Positions 9,732 to 47,478 of a DNA stretch of 64,000 bases are shown here, piece after piece; the first letter of the stretch is position 1; each line of letters begins with the position of its first letter. Under the pieces are notes generated by a model. It did no database searches and was not told the origin of the DNA. It worked only from the letters and a program-made list of their open reading frames with translations. The position numbers and the translations under genes were made by a program. The stretch spans positions 915 to 64,914 of the forward strand of contig CAMEIT010000001.1 of NCBI GenBank assembly GCA_945918795.1, in the 5' to 3' direction. This DNA is from an uncultured Clostridia bacterium (GTDB lineage Bacteria > Bacillota > Clostridia > HGM11327).

Positions 9732-10763
<1,032 letters not shown>

Positions 10764-19050: not shown

Positions 19051-19086
19051 TAAATAAACCTCCTCAAATTGCAACAAGTATAACAA

Positions 19087-19420
19087 AAACCCGTCTCAAA
19101 GCCTTATTTAAGCTTTGAGACGGGTATAAATTACAGCATTTACACTCGCGGTACCACTCAAATTGCGGATACACTTGTCCGCCACCTCTTCGAAGTCAAT
19201 CAACTTCTATGCACTTACGCAGCATTCGCGGGGAGCGCCTACACGGTATTATGTATACCTTTCGGACTTCCGGCTCAAAAGTGATAGGAAATTCTGCAGT
19301 CCTTTATCGGGTTTCCACCGTCCCCGACTCTCTGAGAAAATCGTTGCAGGTTCCGTCTTTATCAACGCCTTTATTTTTCGAAGTCTATCAACCTCTATGC
19401 ATTTACGCAGCAATCACGTG
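19087..19420 (-). promoter_or_regulatory. T-box riboswitch leader upstream of ilvA, with the terminator hairpin at 19090-19128
   Basis: The minus strand carries AATTTGAGTGGTACCGCGAG (T-box consensus AATTAGGGTGGTACCGCG), an AGAGAG stem-I motif, and then the hairpin cccgtctcaaagc...gctttgagacggg plus a TTTTT run immediately 5' of ilvA. The UGGU bulge fits a discriminator A, as in Leu, Ile and Val tRNAs. Confidence 0.75.
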
Positions 19421-27794: not shown

Positions 27795-28357
27795 TCCTTA
27801 TTCTCAAAAAACGCCGTGCCTGCCGAATGTATATACGGCATATAAAAACGGATTTTTATGTTTATATATTCGTTGAAAGACAATTATTTCATTTTAATTA
27901 TACCATAATCAGGTTGAAAATACAACCTATAACAAATGATTTCAAAACTAACGTTTGCAAAGGGCGACCGAAAAATATATTAATGAAACACAAAACCCAT
28001 GACGTAATGTAAATAACGAAGAAAAAGTGCTGACACTCCGACCGCTTTGACCTCTTGTTTTATTCGCCCGATATTATCCGAAAGCATCTGTTTAACACAG
28101 ATTTTACACATCGGCAACAGTAAAGTTTACACGTTATTTATATAATTATTTATTGTTGATATGTATATGTAATGATTTTTGCAATTCAATTACAAGCATA
28201 CAACATCAACGGTAAATGAATCATTCGACAACAAAAGAGATTCAAAAGTGTTTGATACGATCCCCGAAAATCCGTATCTGTTTATAATCGATTTCTGCAA
28301 TGAAATTGTAAACAGACATCGCAAAAGAAATAAACAAATCAAAAAAGAGGTACAAAA

Positions 28358-28528
28358 ATGTTTGAAACAATTCCCGAAAATCCGTATCTGTTACTGACCC
28401 CCGGTCCCCTTTCCACATCAAAGAGCGTTCGCGCCGCTATGCTTCGTGATTGGTGTACTTGGGATGATGACTACAATCAGGATGTACGTTGCCGTAGGCG
28501 ACTGAAGGAGAACACAATATAATAAAAT
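28358..28528 (+). pseudogene. phnW: Truncated 2-aminoethylphosphonate:pyruvate aminotransferase (phnW) remnant with a duplicated 5' end
   Basis: [43 protein letters not shown] matches the conserved PhnW N-terminus. The ORF stops after about 56 codons. A second copy of the first roughly 35 nt lies about 110 bp upstream at 28246-28280. Confidence 0.65.
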
Positions 28529-28682
28529 CTGTCTCGATTTACTATTACATATGGCTCCTTCCACCGCTGACGCGGTCTTCCCTCAAAGATTGAGCCGGGT
28601 TAATCTATAACTGCAAAAATTCGGTTCGCCGTAATCATCAAGTCAAATTTCCATTTTCTTTACTTTTCTCTTTAAATACTAC

Positions 28683-28868
28683 GTGCCGTATATCGGCATT
28701 GCTCCGTAAAAGCCCTAAATAAAGTCGCAAAAATCAATGCTCATCTTGCCGCCATACTCTCGGCGGGAAGATGAGCGAGCTGCAAAGCGTTTTAAAGTTT
28801 TCGGAGCTTGCGTAATAATCTCGAAGAGATTATTACTGGCTTTTTCAAAAGCGTCCAAGAAAACATCA
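28683..28868 (+). repeat. Structured intergenic repeat, family A copy 1 (bidirectional terminator module)
   Basis: Nearly identical to 45282-45448 and, inverted, to 47093-47230. It holds the hairpin ctcatcttgccgcc/ggcgggaagatgag and a second hairpin gtaataatct/agattattac followed by a T-run. Confidence 0.8.
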
Positions 28869-30441: not shown

Positions 30442-30690
30442 AAAAAAAACGGAGCGAATAAATTTCACTCCGTATACTTACGCCAACAAATAATAAGCAA
30501 AAATGCCCAATCGTTATCCGCAGTAAAAACTCTGTCCTTTTGCCTGAGAGATTTACACGGCAACATAACCGCGTATTGCCCCTTCGGCACCCGACTGACG
30601 GGTTTCTCCGGAGTGCTGTCTGCCTGCGGTTTCCGACAAAAACTGTCACCTGAGAGTGTCACTCCTACGGCTGCTTAACGCGATCTTCTG
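30442..30690 (-). promoter_or_regulatory. Glycine riboswitch (tandem aptamers) with expression-platform terminator
   Basis: Minus strand reads GGAGTGACACTCTCAGG..., then CCGGAGAAACC...GCCGAAGGGGCAA...CTCAGGCAAAAGGACAGAG. This is followed by the hairpin acggagtg...cgctccgt and a T8 run just upstream of the AGCS gene. Confidence 0.75.
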
Positions 30691-34695: not shown

Positions 34696-34902
34696 ATGTG
34701 TTCTCCTTTGCGCGTTTTATACATTACTGAATTTTCTTATCAGTTGCGTTTGTTTATATCTGCATTATATATTATTTTTCGGTGTTTGTCAATCGTTTTG
34801 TCACATTCATTCCGCTTTATGCGGAAAATATTTCTTATATATTTCCATTATTTGCACATAATAATTCTACATTCGTTTTCACGAGAAAAAAGGAGTAATT
34901 AT

Positions 34903-35715
34903 ATGAAAAAAACCATTCTGTCAGTAATGTGCGTCGCAATGCTTATTTCATCATGCGCGTGCTCATGCAACAACGCCTCTCCCGAGGCAGCCGCTGTATA
35001 TGCTGAAGCAACAGCCGCATTAAGCGAAATCGACTGCTGTTCATTTGACATATCCGTAAAAAGCCGTATTGATTTGGGAGAAAAAGCGGAAGAATTTCTC
35101 GGTTCGGCATCTTTCCTTGTCAAAGACATTTCCGCAACCGTTAAAGGGTATTTAGACTCGGACTTCATGATGTTTGACGCCTACGGAAACGTCAATCCCG
35201 TTATCGGCTCGCTTGAATTTCAGGCAACCTCAGACGGCAATGCCGCATACTTCAAACTGCCTTGGCTATCGAGAGATGTTTATTCCGTCAGCGCAGAGTA
35301 TATTGAATGTATTTTAGGCCTGCTTTTCAATATAGGCGGGAATTTTTCCGCACTTGATTCCAAAGCATTCCGCACAAGCGCCGTTCGCTATTCTTCAAAA
35401 CAAGGCATAATCAAAGCTTACAGATTCAATACAAACATCTCCTCCGACAAAGTCAATGAAATGCTTTCCGCAGCAGTCGGCAATGTCGATAAATCTTCTT
35501 ACAATGCGGCTTCCTACCTTAAATTTATCGATATAAAAAATGTCGCTTACTCTCTTACCGCTGCAAATGGTCAGGTGCTCCAACAGGCGTTCACTGTCGA
35601 CTTTGACGCACTCGGTGAACTCCGTAATTACGTGAAGTCCGCTGTCGTTTCAATCACCATTGATATTTATGATGCCAATCAAAGCAAAGCCGTCGTGTTG
35701 CCTCGCATTTCGTGA
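34903..35715 (+). CDS. Lipoprotein of unknown function
   Basis: AAGGAG sits before MKKTILSVMCVAMLISSCAC (lipobox). The annotated longer ORF start at 34696 is unlikely. Confidence 0.6.
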   Translation: MKKTILSVMCVAMLISSCACSCNNASPEAAAVYAEATAALSEIDCCSFDISVKSRIDLGEKAEEFLGSASFLVKDISATVKGYLDSDFMMFDAYGNVNPVIGSLEFQATSDGNAAYFKLPWLSRDVYSVSAEYIECILGLLFNIGGNFSALDSKAFRTSAVRYSSKQGIIKAYRFNTNISSDKVNEMLSAAVGNVDKSSYNAASYLKFIDIKNVAYSLTAANGQVLQQAFTVDFDALGELRNYVKSAVVSITIDIYDANQSKAVVLPRIS

Positions 35716-36010
35716 GCTTTTGCAGGGCTGCCGCCCCATTTCACGCAAGGGTATTTATCGGGGCTGCCACCCCATTTCACGCAAGGGTATTTAGGGTATT
35801 TATCGGGGCTGCCTCCCCGCGCCCCGCCAAATTTCTTTTCGTGAGGCTCTGCCTCACACTCCGCAAGCCGGTCTTCGCGGGGCTGCCGCCCCGCACCCCG
35901 CCAAGCCTTTGAAAAGGCTTGACCGAAACTTTTAAACACTTCGTATAAGGCAATCAGCCTCGCCGGTGATCGTCGAGGCTGATTGCCATTTGGGTTTGAG
36001 GTTTTTTCGC
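35716..36010 (+). repeat. Structured GC-rich intergenic repeat, family B copy 1
   Basis: Inverted copy at 47262-47478. Internal tandem units gggctgccgccccatttcacgcaagggtatttatc, two copies of the 25-nt GC motif ggggctgccgccccgc(a/g)ccccgcc, and the 14-bp hairpin ggcaatcagcctcg...cgaggctgattgcc. Confidence 0.8.
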
Positions 36011-39584: not shown

Positions 39585-41723
39585 TTATATTTCTTTAATA
39601 CCCAAACTCTTTAAATATTGATACGTCCCGTCATAATACTCAGGCAGTCGCGTGCTGTCTTCCCAAAAACCACTGACAGTTTTATTTGAGTTTCCGGCAG
39701 GAACGCATATAACCATTCCGGCTCTTGCGCGGGTAAGCAGTACCCGATATGCGTTCAACATATATTTTTGCAATTCGATATTGTTTTCTGTGTTACCGGT
39801 TTGTCTCACCCATTTTGTCTGCCCATTAAATCGATAAAAACACCATTTGCCGTTTTCATATCTCATATCAGCGTCCCAAAGCAGGCAAGTGTAATCAAGC
39901 TCCAAGCCTTGAACCTGAATTTCTGTTGCGGCATCCTCAAGATAATTCGATGATCTTGTGTCAACTTTATCCTCAAGAAACCAGTGAACTGCGTTCTCGT
40001 CACCCGACGGCAGAATATGTATTCCGAGTGGCTTATACCTCGCAGATTCTTTCGTTACAAGAACTCCGGTTCGTTCTGTGCCCCTCACTTTCTTATGAAG
40101 CCATTCCTTTGCCTTGGCCATATCTCTTGTCAAAACGATCGGATAATGGTCTTTTATCTCATCATATATCCTTGATGCACTTTCATCAAAAGACAATAAT
40201 GCGTGGACAAAAGCAGAGAGCTTTTCCGCCCGATATGATCTGAGCGAAACGCCCAAATGCAAGCTTTCATCAAATGTCACATGCCTATTTTCTTTCAGAA
40301 GCTCATTAACTTTTCCTTCAGCATACTCGGCTTGGATCAATTTCGGAGAAATATAAACGTTCCAATGAGGGAATCTTTCATTTAACGCTTTAATCCATTC
40401 GGATATTCCGGCTTCTCCGGTATTTATCTCTTGCCCACCTCCCACAAGGCAGACAATAGTTGCCCAATCCTCGCGCTGATCAAGCGACCAAATCAGAAAG
40501 GCAGCTTCCGACATGGGAAAATTCGGAACCTTGAGCTTATTTCCATATGTTCCGCCTCTTTTGAGATAATCCGCAAGCCTTTTGTGTGTCCATGACCGTT
40601 GAGCCTCGTCAAATATGGCAACATGCTCAACCTCACCGAATCCGGCCTTCTCCATTTTCACGGCCTTTTCAGGATCAATTTCAAGAACTCCGTTTTCAAC
40701 AGGATTCTTGATTTTTGCCAGCATATTATCGCGGTAGCGGTGAATCATCTGAATTGATTTGCTTACCTCACGACGGGAGTCGGTGAGCTTCTTTTTCTCA
40801 TTTTTATCGCGACACCGCTTGAAGTTATCTTGCGCAAGTGCCTCTGTTAATACTGCAACAAGAGGACCATTGCCGGACAAATAAACAGCACCTTCATCTT
40901 TAACCGGTTCGTCATGTCCCTGATATGTCTGCTTGATTGCAACATCAAGCCCGACAAGTGTTTTCCCGGCACCGGGAACTCCGGTTACAAAGCAGATACT
41001 TTTCTTCTGCTTTTCCTTGCTATCCTGAATGACTTTCAAAATATATGCAATCGTTTTATCGGTGGAAACCTTGTCTGCTTCATGGCGCGTTATATTTTCA
41101 ACTGAATGGTTCTCATATAACGATTTTGCTGCTTCAATGATCGTTGGTGTGGGAGCATAGGGGCTGATAATCCAATTTGAATTAACAGGTGATTCATTCG
41201 GAAATTTCACCAGCACCTCAGAAATCAAATTTGATATGCCATTTTCTCCGGAAACCAACGGATTTACCACCCTATCATCATATACCGACATTTGAATACT
41301 GGTGGACGAATCGTTATGCTTCGTTGCAATCAATATAGGCACAATTATTCTGTCTTGACTGAACTTATGAAAATTCTTTAAGTCAAGCGCATAGTCAAGA
41401 ACTTGGTCTATATCCGATTCTAATATTTTGGATTCCCCCACTTTGAATTCGAGACAAAACACAATCCCTTTTAATAATAAAACCACGTCAATTCTTTTGC
41501 CAAGTCGTGGAATATCATACTCAAAAATAATTTGCCCATTTTCTCCTGAATAGACGGACAAAACCTGCTTCATTATGGAAATTTCAGACTTCCACGCTTC
41601 TCTTGTAGTCGTAAGAGCTTCACCGTGGTATTTATCGCATAGAAGCCCGAGAAGAGAATTACTATCCGCATAAATAAATCTATCAAAACTATCATTGAAC
41701 AAACAGCGAGTGCTATCTCTCAT
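39585..41723 (-). CDS. DUF2075-family ATPase (SF1 helicase-like) with an N-terminal PD-(D/E)xK nuclease-like domain
   Basis: N-terminal EYDIP...RIDVVLL...CLEFKV (E/D/ExK pattern). Walker A FVTGVPGAGKTLVG. Walker B VAIFDEAQR. AAAGGAG sits 8 nt before the ATG at 41723. Confidence 0.7.
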   Translation of the reverse strand: MRDSTRCLFNDSFDRFIYADSNSLLGLLCDKYHGEALTTTREAWKSEISIMKQVLSVYSGENGQIIFEYDIPRLGKRIDVVLLLKGIVFCLEFKVGESKILESDIDQVLDYALDLKNFHKFSQDRIIVPILIATKHNDSSTSIQMSVYDDRVVNPLVSGENGISNLISEVLVKFPNESPVNSNWIISPYAPTPTIIEAAKSLYENHSVENITRHEADKVSTDKTIAYILKVIQDSKEKQKKSICFVTGVPGAGKTLVGLDVAIKQTYQGHDEPVKDEGAVYLSGNGPLVAVLTEALAQDNFKRCRDKNEKKKLTDSRREVSKSIQMIHRYRDNMLAKIKNPVENGVLEIDPEKAVKMEKAGFGEVEHVAIFDEAQRSWTHKRLADYLKRGGTYGNKLKVPNFPMSEAAFLIWSLDQREDWATIVCLVGGGQEINTGEAGISEWIKALNERFPHWNVYISPKLIQAEYAEGKVNELLKENRHVTFDESLHLGVSLRSYRAEKLSAFVHALLSFDESASRIYDEIKDHYPIVLTRDMAKAKEWLHKKVRGTERTGVLVTKESARYKPLGIHILPSGDENAVHWFLEDKVDTRSSNYLEDAATEIQVQGLELDYTCLLWDADMRYENGKWCFYRFNGQTKWVRQTGNTENNIELQKYMLNAYRVLLTRARAGMVICVPAGNSNKTVSGFWEDSTRLPEYYDGTYQYLKSLGIKEI

Positions 41724-41768
41724 TGGAACTACTCCTTTCAACCGCATATTTCCCGGGACTTATCCTTC

Positions 41769-41930
41769 TATCGCCGGTTCTCAGATTTATCCGGTACAAT
41801 CTCAATAATATCATTCATCGTGCAACCGAGTGCCGTACATATTTTAACCAAAACATCGCTTGAAACAGTTGCGCCGTCTTTTTTCATCTTTGCGAGAGTT
41901 GCGGGACTGATTACTATGGAGCAATAAATA
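41769..41930 (-). pseudogene. Truncated XRE-family HTH regulator (only the C-terminal part of the HTH remains)
   Basis: The minus-strand frame reads ...ISPATLAKMKKDGATVSSDVLVKICTALGCTMNDIIEIVPDKSENRR*. An in-frame stop lies immediately upstream, and the first HTH helix is absent. The remnant abuts the 3' end of the 984-aa gene. Confidence 0.55.
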
Positions 41931-41941
41931 TTTTAAATAAA

Positions 41942-44896
41942 CTATCTCTTATCACGATGTGAACATTTATAGCATACACCAAGATTAACGTGATTTACTC
42001 CACCGTATGATACAAAATTAGCCTCTTGATTTATCTCACCGCACAGCTCACACTGAATCCACCTTCTGCCTAATGAATCGCGAATCTGGTATTCTTGCTG
42101 AGTAAACTTATCCTTAACTTCATTATAACCGTTAATACAACGCAACTCAGCAATTTGTTCTTGTCGTGCTTGCTCAATTTCAAGAGCTTTCTCGCGCTCT
42201 TTTCTTAATTTCTCTTGCCGACGAAGATATTTTTCTCGCGATATGCGGTCCTGCTCTGCACATCTATACATACTATCTATACGTTTTTGTTCTTGTTCTT
42301 CGCATACTCGTCTATGTTTCTCTTCCGACTCTTTTTCTCGCATAATTTTATATTCCGGAAAAAGTTCGTCTATAAAAGTGCTTTCCATTCCTTTTATACC
42401 AAATAGACTCAAATTGTTTTTTGCTCGCGTAATGCCAACGTAAAACAATCGTCTTTCTTCTTGCTCACCATCCGCATTATCCTTGGAACGACTAAATATA
42501 TTTGGTCTTGATGATGGGAAACGACCGTCATACACATCTACCATATAAACGCTATCGTATTCCAGGCCTTTGCTTGAGTGGATAGTTGAAAGAATTACAG
42601 CATTATTTGCTTTGGAGAAAAAATCTTGCTGTATTAATTTTTCCAGTTCTGCAAGTCTATTCAAGAACTTTTGTATATCAGGCTCTTGTTTTGAAAGAAT
42701 TTGGAGGATCTCAATCTTTCCGCTATCAAGATGATTATTTTTCACGTATTCCCCATATCCATTATCCATTAAAATTGAAATCGCGTCCGAAGCTTTGGCT
42801 TTCCCAACTCTTCCCATTACGCTTCTGAAATTATCAGCTATATTTTTCTGACGTTTTTTAAGATATTGCATCTGACCTTCAACAGCATCATAAACAGACA
42901 TGTGTTTATATTTGCAATTCTTAAGCACATACTCTTTTTGCTGGCTCTTAAGATATAGGATACCCTTATTGCATATTTTATCAAACGATTCAGCGTCATT
43001 TTCATTCAATGCAAGCGAGAGATACGCTATTATTTCCTTAACTACTCGATTCGCAAAAAAATTCATTTCGGGCTTACGTAGCCTAAAAGGAACGCCATTC
43101 CTTAAAAACAGATCAATAAGAACAACGGAGCTCTCATTATCTCGATATAGAAATGCAGTTTCTCTATCCGCGGTCTTTGCTATTTCAAGCAAGCGTGTGT
43201 ACTGCTTTTCTCTTGAGTCAACCTGTTCTAAAAACACTGCTTCGCCATCACCGCGCTCGGCTGTCATATTTTTCTCATAGCGGCCTTTATTATGTGAAAT
43301 AAATGATTGCGCCTTATCAACAATTTGCCTTGTTGATCGATAATTGCGCTCCATTCGAAGAATATATGGGTTAAGATAATCATATTTGAAATTCAATAAC
43401 GCCTTTGGGTATGCTGCACGGAAACCATATATACTTTGATCTTCGTCGCCCACCATAAAGATATTATTTTCTTTGGCGAGAATCTTAATAATCTCGTGCT
43501 GGATTTTGGATGTGTCCTGAGCCTCATCCACACAAATGTATTTATAGCGTTCTCTCAACGCGGATGTAATTTCATCATCTTTTTTTAAAATCCAAAGAGC
43601 AAATACCATTTGGTCGTCAAAATCCATTTGGCATTTCTCTTGCAGTGACTTCTTATAAGTTTCATACATTGCATTCAAATGTGGGTATTCGGTTTCTATC
43701 TCACTGATTTGCTCTTTCGTGAGCATCATATTTTTTATGTATGTGATAGCAGTGGAAAGCTCAAGAATATCATTCTCAGTCGCATATTCACCATAGTGTT
43801 GCTTAAATATTTCCCCAAGCAAACGCCGTCTTTCATCGCCTTGAATCTGTTTTCTTCGTTGTTTATGGACTTTACTACAATAGTCCACATACACTTTAAG
43901 CGCCAAACTGTTAATTGTACGGAAATCAATTTGCTTACCAAATTTATCACCGAATTGGGCAGAAAACCTGTTCTCCATCTCCTTTGCTGCTGCAGTATTA
44001 TACGTAATGGCAAGAATATTTTCAGGCGCAATGTTTTTATTGAGCACCATGTGACCCAAGCGTTCAACAAGCACTGTGGTTTTTCCCGAGCCCGGGACTG
44101 CCAATAATAGATTTGATCCCTCAACGGCAAGCAAAGCTCGTTCCTGTTGCTTATTAAGGTTAATATGATATTTTTCCTTAAATGAGCAATACTGCTCATT
44201 GTTTTCAATATCTTCTCTACACGGTGGCAAGCACTGTCCATTTTTCAAGCCTATATAAGTCAGAAAATCGTTTTTGCTGATAAAACCGGACGTGTAAAAG
44301 CATTCAAACCCATCTGCAGAAACATCGGTTACTCTTACTATGCATGCGTCGGAATCTGATTGTAGCTGAAAGAAAAGATCTATACAACCACTTTGAATAT
44401 CATAATTATTAAATGCTTTTTTAGGATTCTGCCAATGGAATTCCAGTCTACCGCTTGTTTCTTTGCAAACCAGTTGATCTTCTAACAGATCAGATAAATC
44501 AAATAGCCATATGACTTTGTTACCTAAATTAAAATAGAAATTGTTTCTATCGTCAAAATCTTTCACCGACATTATACTATGCTGAAACTCAATAACAGTG
44601 CGATCAATCATGACATCTGCTCGATGTTTTGTATCTCCCAGAGATAGTTTTACTTCCTGATTTTCTTTAGGAAACAAAGACTGCCATTCGTTATGCCAGG
44701 GAGATATATCATAACTATGGCTACGTTCCCAAGTATCAGAGCAAATGTGATTTTGCTTATGTGCAAAATGGTGTTGACGAATTTCACCTTTTTTCATAAT
44801 CAGAGGTGCTCCACAGTAGGGGCAATAATATTCTTGATTCCCGTGCGTATCCTCAATATGAACTCGATTATCGTTGTAATCAATTGCAAATAACAT
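41942..44896 (-). CDS. Fusion protein: CoiA-like zinc-ribbon nuclease domain, UvrD/PcrA-like SF1 helicase, coiled coil, and a C-terminal zinc ribbon
   Basis: N-terminal YYCPYCGAPL...HHFAHK...HRADVMIDRTVIEFQH (CoiA-like). Helicase motifs AVPGSGKTT, CVDEAQD, IYGFR, NYRST, TIHSSKGLEYD and VGITRAK. The C-terminus has a CxxC...CxxC pattern. An extended -10 (TGGTATAAT) lies upstream. Confidence 0.75.
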   Translation of the reverse strand: MLFAIDYNDNRVHIEDTHGNQEYYCPYCGAPLIMKKGEIRQHHFAHKQNHICSDTWERSHSYDISPWHNEWQSLFPKENQEVKLSLGDTKHRADVMIDRTVIEFQHSIMSVKDFDDRNNFYFNLGNKVIWLFDLSDLLEDQLVCKETSGRLEFHWQNPKKAFNNYDIQSGCIDLFFQLQSDSDACIVRVTDVSADGFECFYTSGFISKNDFLTYIGLKNGQCLPPCREDIENNEQYCSFKEKYHINLNKQQERALLAVEGSNLLLAVPGSGKTTVLVERLGHMVLNKNIAPENILAITYNTAAAKEMENRFSAQFGDKFGKQIDFRTINSLALKVYVDYCSKVHKQRRKQIQGDERRRLLGEIFKQHYGEYATENDILELSTAITYIKNMMLTKEQISEIETEYPHLNAMYETYKKSLQEKCQMDFDDQMVFALWILKKDDEITSALRERYKYICVDEAQDTSKIQHEIIKILAKENNIFMVGDEDQSIYGFRAAYPKALLNFKYDYLNPYILRMERNYRSTRQIVDKAQSFISHNKGRYEKNMTAERGDGEAVFLEQVDSREKQYTRLLEIAKTADRETAFLYRDNESSVVLIDLFLRNGVPFRLRKPEMNFFANRVVKEIIAYLSLALNENDAESFDKICNKGILYLKSQQKEYVLKNCKYKHMSVYDAVEGQMQYLKKRQKNIADNFRSVMGRVGKAKASDAISILMDNGYGEYVKNNHLDSGKIEILQILSKQEPDIQKFLNRLAELEKLIQQDFFSKANNAVILSTIHSSKGLEYDSVYMVDVYDGRFPSSRPNIFSRSKDNADGEQEERRLFYVGITRAKNNLSLFGIKGMESTFIDELFPEYKIMREKESEEKHRRVCEEQEQKRIDSMYRCAEQDRISREKYLRRQEKLRKEREKALEIEQARQEQIAELRCINGYNEVKDKFTQQEYQIRDSLGRRWIQCELCGEINQEANFVSYGGVNHVNLGVCYKCSHRDKR

Positions 44897-45017
44897 ATAA
44901 GCTTGCCCCTTTCTTAATGATCATTTTTATTATACCATAAATTTTCTATATTTTTTACAAGATTTAATAAATATAAAGGTGACAAATAACTCTGCCACCT
45001 TATCTTTGCTTCCTGCG

Positions 45018-45217
45018 AGGTAAATATTACTCCGTTGCCGTCATTCTCCGCTCACGGTCTCGCCTTTCCAGTCTATGATGCCGCCGAACTCCACAAAGCA
45101 CACCAAGCAAACGACCGTGCTGTGATGCAGGCATATGGGTTTGATGTCAAGACAATGACGGAAAGCAGTTGTGTTGCGGAGCTTATGAAGATGTATCAAA
45201 AGTTAGTGGGATGTTGA
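45018..45217 (+). pseudogene. C-terminal remnant of an N6-adenine DNA methyltransferase / type IIG-ISP (MmeI- or PglX-like) enzyme
   Basis: ...VYDAAELHKAHQANDRAVMQAYGFD...ELMKMYQKLV resembles the conserved C-terminal tail of these methyltransferases. A stop codon lies immediately upstream, so only about 66 codons survive. Confidence 0.45.
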
Positions 45218-45281: not shown

Positions 45282-45448
45282 GTGCCGTAAAAAAACTTAA
45301 ATAGTGTCGCAAAAATAAATGCTCATCTTTTCGTCATACTCTCGACGAAAAGATGAGCGAGCTGCAAAGCGTCTTCAAGTTTTCGGGCTTAAGTAATAAT
45401 CGCAAAGATATTATTACTTACTTTTCAAAAAGCGCCCAAGAAAAATCA
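45282..45448 (+). repeat. Family A repeat, copy 2
   Basis: Aligns base-for-base with 28683-28868. Compensatory changes sit in the hairpin (ttcgtc/gacgaa here versus gccgcc/ggcggg in copy 1). Confidence 0.8.
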
Positions 45449-47073: not shown

Positions 47074-47092
47074 GTTTTTATTTTTTCTTTTC

Positions 47093-47230
47093 TTTTGGAC
47101 GCTTTTGAAAAGCGTCCAAACCCGAAAACTTTAAAACGCTTTGCGGCTCCTCATCTCCTTGCCAAGAGTACGGCTTCGGAGATGAGGATTTACTTTTGCG
47201 ACGTTATTTAAGGTTTTTACGGCAAAATAT
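47093..47230 (-). repeat. Family A repeat, copy 3 (inverted)
   Basis: Reverse complement matches copies 1 and 2. Hairpins cctcatctcc...ggagatgagg and ggacgcttttgaaaagcgtcc. Confidence 0.75.
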
Positions 47231-47261
47231 AAATATACAGCACATTTCCATTGAAAAAGAA

Positions 47262-47478
47262 ACGAAAACCAAATGGCAATCCGACTCGACGACCACCGGC
47301 GAGGCTGATTGCCAACCACAAAGTGTTTTAAAGTTTCGCTCAAGCCTTTTCAAAGGCTTGCGGAGTGTGAGGCAGAGCCTCACGAAGAAAAGCTTAGCGG
47401 GGCGCGGGGCGGGGCGGCAGCCCCGAGAGGACGGCTTGCGGAGTGTGGGGCAGAGCCCCACAAAATGATAAAAATGTT
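47262..47478 (-). repeat. Family B repeat, copy 2 (inverted relative to 35716-36010)
   Basis: Reverse complement aligns to 35815-36000, including gtgaggcagagcctcac and the GC-rich ggggcggcagcccc motif. Confidence 0.8.

Follow-up and report, generated by a model that had tools for sequence, protein, structure and literature searches.

A 64-kb window from an uncultured Clostridia bacterium (the window being the whole stretch of 64,000 nucleotides that was analysed) contains five copies of a structured intergenic repeat. Probably, at a probability of about 0.6, this is a mosaic interspersed repeat with two unit types, A and B, which would act as a portable 3' UTR and terminator for adjoining genes. 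The unit is about 120 nt long. When it is read along the neighbouring gene, a short hairpin (HP1), placed right after the stop codon of this gene, is followed by a 22-nt A/T-rich box, a long hairpin of 14–15 bp (HP2), and a U-rich run. On the modelled strand, A and B units have the same composition: an A-rich leader (..ACG-AAAAnnAAATG), HP2, the box CAAAGYRTTTTAAAGTTTYCGG, and HP1 with the CTTTTCAAAAG centre; B units additionally possess a tail of GC-rich mini-hairpins. Termination at the units and the mobility of the units are what we infer from these sequences. The host is an uncultured Clostridia lineage of the gut; the nearest named homologues of the Na:alanine symporter encoded in the window come from Clostridia and Ruminococcaceae MAGs, with an identity of at most 69%.

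A scan of the window with the covariance model, with the filters off, revealed exactly five units; weaker matches at 62040–62141 and 19065–19132 were inspected and rejected. The three copies named in the preliminary description were recovered at its coordinates: A1 (28683–28868, plus strand), A2 (45282–45448, plus strand), and A3 (47093–47230, minus strand). They align over about 150–190 nt with a mean column identity of 76%. The box GCAAAGCGTNTTNAAGTTTTC occurs three times in the window versus 0.06 occurrences expected from shuffles, and the A2 box has two positions unlike the conserved string quoted earlier.

The A1 unit (model core 28716–28862) has its outer end 3 nt from the TGA stop codon (28866–28868) of the minus-strand symporter gene. 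Its HP2 (28739–28776) contains 15 pairs with one G.G mismatch and the loop ATACTCTC; on the minus strand, the T-rich run ATTGATTTTTGC (28727–28738) comes after HP2 in the direction of the symporter gene, and in sequence this combination resembles an intrinsic terminator. The conserved box GCAAAGCGTTTTAAAGTTTTCGG is located at 28782–28804 (plus strand), where a weak hairpin with G.U pairs is possible on the plus strand only. An AT-rich 25-nt hairpin inside HP1 (28812–28836, plus strand) is followed by TGGCTTTTTC and is terminator-like on the plus strand. The position given earlier for A1 was right, but its left end was set too short, since repeat-derived sequence extends 170 nt further (28545–28715) and shows 89.6% identity to contig L062. 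The part at 28545–28682 (minus strand; 89.6% identity to L062:9551-9815) is a truncated remnant of an inward-facing partner together with a spacer module, and the centre palindrome TGCCGTATATCGGCA at 28685–28699 was assigned to this partner/spacer remnant. In the spacer module, at 28545–28560 (minus strand), a strong RBS-like sequence GGAAGGAGCC is followed by a start and a stop codon (ATG TAA), and this arrangement is kept in both the window and L062 (about 9790–9815).

The A2 unit has its model core at 45298–45443 and a perfect 15-bp HP2 stem at 45321–45358; its outer end is 2 nt from the TGA stop codon (45446–45448) of a minus-strand gene encoding 190 aa. The A3 unit, taken at its full extent, occupies 47074–47245 (minus strand; core 47091–47210; HP2 47149–47187), and its outer end is 17 nt past the TAA stop codon of the plus-strand ZIP transporter gene. 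The B2 unit (47253–47470, plus strand; core 47253–47367; HP2 47275–47313; GC-rich mini-hairpin tail) lies head to head with A3 across a gap of 42 nt and comes after a separate native terminator. The B1 unit (35716–36010, minus strand; core 35895–36010; HP2 35949–35987) also has a mini-hairpin tail, which ends about 8 nt from the TGA stop codon of the plus-strand gene at 34696–35715.

The mini-hairpins of the B tails form arrays of variable number, about 36 nt for each element, at 35716–35894, 47368–47470, and L062:10096-10190. Examples are GGGGCGGCAGCCCC and GTGAGGCAGAGCCTCAC, each with GGCTTG.. before it and GAAAAG after it. They are of REP size, and a 36-nt tandem pair can be noted at 35718–35789.

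Five A copies, three of them in the window and two in an ENA metagenome assembly, served to build the covariance model. It matches both B copies (35895–36010, minus strand, and 47253–47367, plus strand) over the full model length with an E-value of about 4e-8; judging from this match, the second repeat family of the window is a relative of A and not a separate family. In the window and the fetched metagenome and MAG contigs, the model found 29 units, 27 of them distinct, so the family exceeds the three copies of the preliminary description. The E-values of family members go down to 1e-28 to 1e-33, the similarity spans 120–190 nt including the parts outside the hairpins, and blocks of 270–584 nt recur at loci whose flanking genes differ. 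In several assemblies, contigs break off within a unit (at least 12: L009, L011–L013, L030, L051, L061, L065, L068, L070, L073, and L077), as is typical of multi-copy repeats assembled from short reads.

Further copies were found by a protein search in which a spurious 118-aa ORF across B1 served as the probe. The search gave 15 cluster representatives and then 52 small ORFs, of which 50 are present only in ENA metagenome assemblies. Their sequences correspond to A and B units in translation; P0126 covers tandem B units, and P0123 and P0129 cover A+B composites. A coding explanation was rejected: the small ORFs across the units differ from copy to copy, an ATG is lacking in A3, and the stems show compensatory changes unlike the pattern of a coding region. 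A pattern scan for the box gave 47 matches in metagenomes, two of them real (L030 and L051), eight matches in genome contigs, all by chance (the 21-nt pattern alone matched), and none in viral contigs. A distant blastn search with the A3/B2 block against plasmid and phage collections gave no match, and the concatenated six-frame peptides of A units, used as a protein query, gave nothing at E <= 10. No relevant Rfam match was obtained with gathering thresholds for the whole window or with permissive thresholds for the copies; the best one, RNA-OUT (24.7 bits against a threshold of 41), was rejected as a chance hairpin match.

The compensatory changes that had been described in the main hairpin are upheld in the 27 distinct copies. 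Standard pairs make up 92.9% of the cells, 24 of the 34 pairs change on both sides (13 of 15 in HP2), and none of the 500 shuffles reached the observed pairing values; these statistics come from an alignment fitted to the model, with far fewer independent events than cells. When the partners are slid by 1–3 columns, the pairing drops to 32–50%. The HP2 stems exist in three unrelated versions, GCTCATCT... in A units, GGCAATC... in one B subtype, and GTCCTCGAGCGATG... in another B subtype; despite this, the loops and flanks of HP2 stay similar. Every copy folds HP2 singly, without recourse to the alignment. HP1 is found in the compensatory variants GGACGC/GCGTCC, GGGGAC/GTCCCC, GGGAGC/GCTCCC, and AAGCC/GGCTT. 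Taken at the sequence level, this supports the view that the structure of the unit is maintained via compensatory change, although swapping of modules between copies can mimic such change, as it keeps the pairing without selection at that moment.

HP2 has a stability between -16 and -29 kcal/mol in each of the 27 distinct copies. In the direction of the gene, it is always followed by AUUnAnUUUU, with 5–8 U in 12 nt, whereas in the other direction only 0–5 U follow HP2. A simple terminator scan flags A2 and B1, both on the strand of the gene. All 12 independent A units are oriented so that HP2 and the U-run read from the adjoining gene. Nine A units begin 2–17 nt after the stop codon of unrelated genes, which encode the symporter, a His/Asp/Cys-rich protein, the ZIP transporter, an oxidoreductase, a short-chain dehydrogenase, NAD synthase, a hexapeptide-repeat protein (L065), and an unnamed 182-aa protein (L061); the unit of L069, inside which the ORF stops, makes up the nine. 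In both L051 and L069, the ORF enters the unit and stops inside HP1. L030 is the only A unit with a separate native terminator between it and the gene.

The suggestion that copies provide the stop-proximal 3' UTR agrees with the abutment of copies on the stop codons of adjoining genes in the window. The label of bidirectional terminators holds in part. In A1 and A2, and also in L069, the AT-rich 25-nt hairpin in HP1 is followed by a T-run and is terminator-like in the opposite direction, but the conserved HP2 and its U-run point one way. Likewise, every copy lies between convergent genes in this window, but not at L069 and one L065 site, where the flanking genes are co-directional, the A unit abuts the stop codon of the upstream gene, and the B unit faces the start of the downstream gene. 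A terminator pointing towards a gene start has no obvious use, and these two B units therefore speak against the terminator reading. On the strand of the gene, many B units also contain in the HP1 loop and box, just upstream of HP2, a promoter-like TTGAAA-17 nt-TAAAAT sequence matching in 10 of 12 positions (for example, L062:10053-10081, minus strand). The B2 unit of the window reads TAAAAC in place of TAAAAT and is not flagged. Possibly, this likeness of B units to promoters is due to chance.

As a portable 3' UTR and terminator, the unit would work as follows. The mRNA of the adjoining gene would run into the unit and meet HP2 and the U-run as its first terminator; that the mRNA must enter the unit follows from the position of the unit, which begins nearly at the stop codon and is preceded by no further terminator. 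The unit would thus serve as a ready-made 3' UTR plus terminator for its neighbour, and a head-to-head A/B pair between convergent genes would provide two back-to-back terminators. The copies change in number and exchange modules through recombination with each other. A part of the unit is not explained in this way, since the box, HP1, and the conservation of the HP2 loop are all dispensable for a terminator.

The variation between strains bears on this exchange. The common layout is a gene, an inverted A unit, a centre, one or more B units, and the next gene; the centre is about 42 nt long or, with more repeat-derived modules, about 300–390 nt. Head-to-head A/B pairs were found in the window (A3/B2), L051, L061, L062, L065, L066, L068, and L069, and each pair, taken together, forms a long imperfect inverted repeat. 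Direct tandems of B units occur as well. The gene of L071 that is 84% identical to the window symporter gene has no unit in the 197 nt downstream, and the L010 locus, whose symporter is 75% identical, is also without a unit. In strains with flanking genes 97–99% identical to those of the window, no orthologous A2, A3, or B unit is missing, but the units themselves are not alike. A single B unit in the window corresponds to two in L072 and L074, located 300 nt apart, and the B unit at the orthologous site has only 82–85% identity and belongs to another stem subtype. The A3 unit of L076 has a different, fully paired HP1. In L072, the A2 unit consists of an A3-type leader and HP2 joined to an unchanged 3' half, and the HP2 of A2 in L073 is half-converted, with two mismatches. 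Judging from these comparisons, turnover of the units is much faster than that of the surrounding sequence and is due largely to copies exchanging parts with one another. The earlier view of a REP- or MITE-like repeat is borne out insofar as the family is dispersed and dynamic, with copies at unrelated loci and a copy number and modules that vary between strains.

Several features point to the strand opposite to that of the gene. Wobble pairs are biased to it (71 G.U cells versus 21 A.C cells, a count that comprises few independent events in an alignment fitted to the same strand). This strand folds slightly more stably in six of seven copies, A2 being equal within 0.3 kcal/mol, and the small hairpin of the box with its G.U pairs can be formed only there, with one double compensatory change. 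These features keep alive two rival explanations, mobile DNA and small RNA.

According to the first, the units are foremost non-autonomous mobile DNA. Single-stranded DNA hairpins are recognised in a strand-specific way in REPIN/RAYT systems and IS200/IS605-derived elements; here, an enzyme encoded elsewhere would recognise such hairpins, and terminator activity would be a side effect that aids survival at gene ends. We consider this possible, though clearly less probable than a portable 3' UTR and terminator. It agrees with the spread of units over unrelated loci and genomes, with the G.T-tolerant pairing biased to one strand, with stems that vary while loops and flanks are conserved, with differences in presence and copy number between relatives, and with the alternating orientation of units, as in BIMEs. 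Hairpins are located near both ends of the unit, and no terminal inverted repeats were found in a single unit; the flanks are T-rich and show no fixed motif. However, no transposase, RAYT, or integrase was detected among the ORFs of the 64-kb window, nor was a TnpA, and the unit ends, whose exact positions are uncertain, show no direct repeat and no conserved target motif or duplication. The suggestion of a MITE in the preliminary description is therefore not supported, as no transposase was found in the window and no target-site duplication or terminal inverted repeats in a single unit. Moreover, the orientation in 12 of 12 cases follows the direction of the gene and not of replication, since both orientations occur in one window with a uniformly negative GC skew. 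The variation described above also largely resembles recombination between copies and not new insertion.

A bolder version of this explanation, which appears unlikely, is a self-propagating gene-end cassette. An enzyme encoded elsewhere would read the three-hairpin fold with its box and HP2 loop and place the unit on a stop codon or shortly behind it; the unit would take over the 3' end of the gene and sometimes supply the stop codon. The family would then be a new REPIN-like type in Clostridia.

Even less likely is the reading of each unit as a gene for a small RNA, encoded on the strand pointing towards the 3' end of the neighbour; this RNA would have an A-rich 5' end and three hairpins and would act in trans or antisense to the gene end. 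The three hairpins do fold consecutively on this strand, with the slight gain in stability, the strand-specific G.U pairs, and the double compensatory change of the middle hairpin noted above. However, no promoter-like site was found upstream of the window units on this strand, and for the A unit of L062 there is just a weak site (9 of 12), located 190 nt before it. The last hairpin, HP1, is not followed by a U-run except in the A1/A2 subtype, the transcripts would collide head-on with those of the neighbouring genes, and no Rfam family matches. Finally, ordinary terminators that evolved independently and are alike by chance would also lie at gene ends as a hairpin and a T-rich run, as every copy does, but this is refuted by the box enrichment, the model E-values, the 120–190 nt of similarity with its non-hairpin parts, and the long blocks shared by unrelated loci. 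Integron attC sites were rejected, because housekeeping genes in either orientation surround the units and no integrase was detected in the window; CRISPR/tracrRNA, retron, and DGR were dropped because the expected partner genes and arrays are absent.

Among known systems, REP/BIME elements of enterobacteria and pseudomonads are credited with transcription termination and mRNA stabilisation in two papers (PMC2817692, PMC3733652). Like the present family, they are extragenic structured repeats, often located at gene ends, and form mosaics with units in alternating orientation; the GC-rich mini-hairpins of the B tails, of about 36 nt, are also of REP size. The differences are several: REPs are 20–40 nt long compared with about 120 nt and three hairpins in a unit, neither HP2 nor the tail hairpins start with a GTAG or CGTC head, and no RAYT gene, as in REPIN-RAYT systems, was seen among the ORFs of the 64-kb window. 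In addition, the present family belongs to a Clostridia lineage, its orientation is locked to the adjoining gene, and its units directly adjoin stop codons.

BOX elements of Streptococcus pneumoniae, a Firmicute, are composed of end modules and of internal modules that vary in number; they are intergenic, fold stably, encode no transposase, and have no known means of movement. In this general description they resemble our family. No lock of their orientation to stop codons, and no canonical terminator in each unit, is known for BOX elements. Structured intergenic repeats of 100–150 nt are also represented by the Correia elements in Neisseria and the ERIC/IRU elements in enterobacteria; these are co-transcribed with their neighbours and can be terminators or RNA-processing sites. 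A Correia element possesses terminal inverted repeats and a TA duplication, and ERIC is a single large imperfect palindrome; none of these features was seen in a single unit here. What the unit shares with intrinsic (Rho-independent) terminators is a hairpin and a subsequent U-run, placed behind a gene on the same strand; in our family, these are embedded in a conserved repeat of 120–600 nt common to unrelated genes and genomes. Apparently, the family is a fairly ordinary type of bacterial repeat, though one not described before; most likely, it supplies the transcription terminators of the genes it adjoins. The tight apposition to stop codons is the single feature that ordinary models of such repeats fail to predict.

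If units do supply 3' UTRs and terminators, many unrelated genes of this lineage draw both from one exchangeable repeated module, and the common box in these 3' UTRs could be a shared handle for an RNA-binding factor. REP/BIME-like mosaics would also be extended to a group in which, as far as could be found, none have been described. For annotation, the units are a source of spurious ORF calls, 52 of which are in public data. The breakage of public short-read contigs at units is a practical problem for assemblies of the lineage. As for genome plasticity, the units swap modules, vary in number, and in one case border a plausible deletion.

This case concerns A1. It had been proposed that copies follow truncated genes and are linked to rearrangements. 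For phnW, this is plausible: the N-terminal fragment of the gene (28376–28486, plus strand; profile positions 1–39 of about 365) reaches to within about 55 nt of the left edge (28545) of the A1 repeat block, which is itself truncated relative to L062. A deletion reaching from inside the A1 repeat into phnW would be a plausible explanation. The C-terminal remnant of an MmeI-type enzyme gene near A2 (45035–45217, plus strand) does not fit the proposal. Its homology to the intact L073 gene starts at window position 45084, so the breakpoint is 200 nt from A2, and L073 has an intact 920-aa MmeI followed by the same A2; the element is thus not the place where the remnant was cut. Of MmeI, the window keeps just the last 133 nt.

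The breakpoint coincides with the end of a defence-type island that differs by strain (window 39585–45084 versus L073:4225-8191). In the window, the island encodes a Schlafen-like helicase and a CoiA-nuclease/UvrD helicase, and in L073, an HTH protein, a rhodanese, and the intact MmeI-type enzyme. Near phnW, a 50-nt direct repeat with 88% identity (28233–28282 and 28343–28392) duplicates the start region of the phnW fragment; it adjoins a phosphonate gene cluster encoding PEP mutase, a TPP decarboxylase-like protein, Fe-ADH, and LicD. A glycine riboswitch with a single aptamer (30522–30621, minus strand, 59.2 bits) is located upstream of the Na:alanine symporter gene that bears A1 at its 3' end. 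Two tandem c-di-GMP-I riboswitch aptamers (54637–54720 and 54773–54856, minus strand; 59.9 and 63.7 bits) were found upstream of a minus-strand cluster with signal-peptidase-like and camelysin-like genes, further along which a 1020-aa Listeria-Bacteroides-repeat protein and a sortase-B-target-like protein are encoded.
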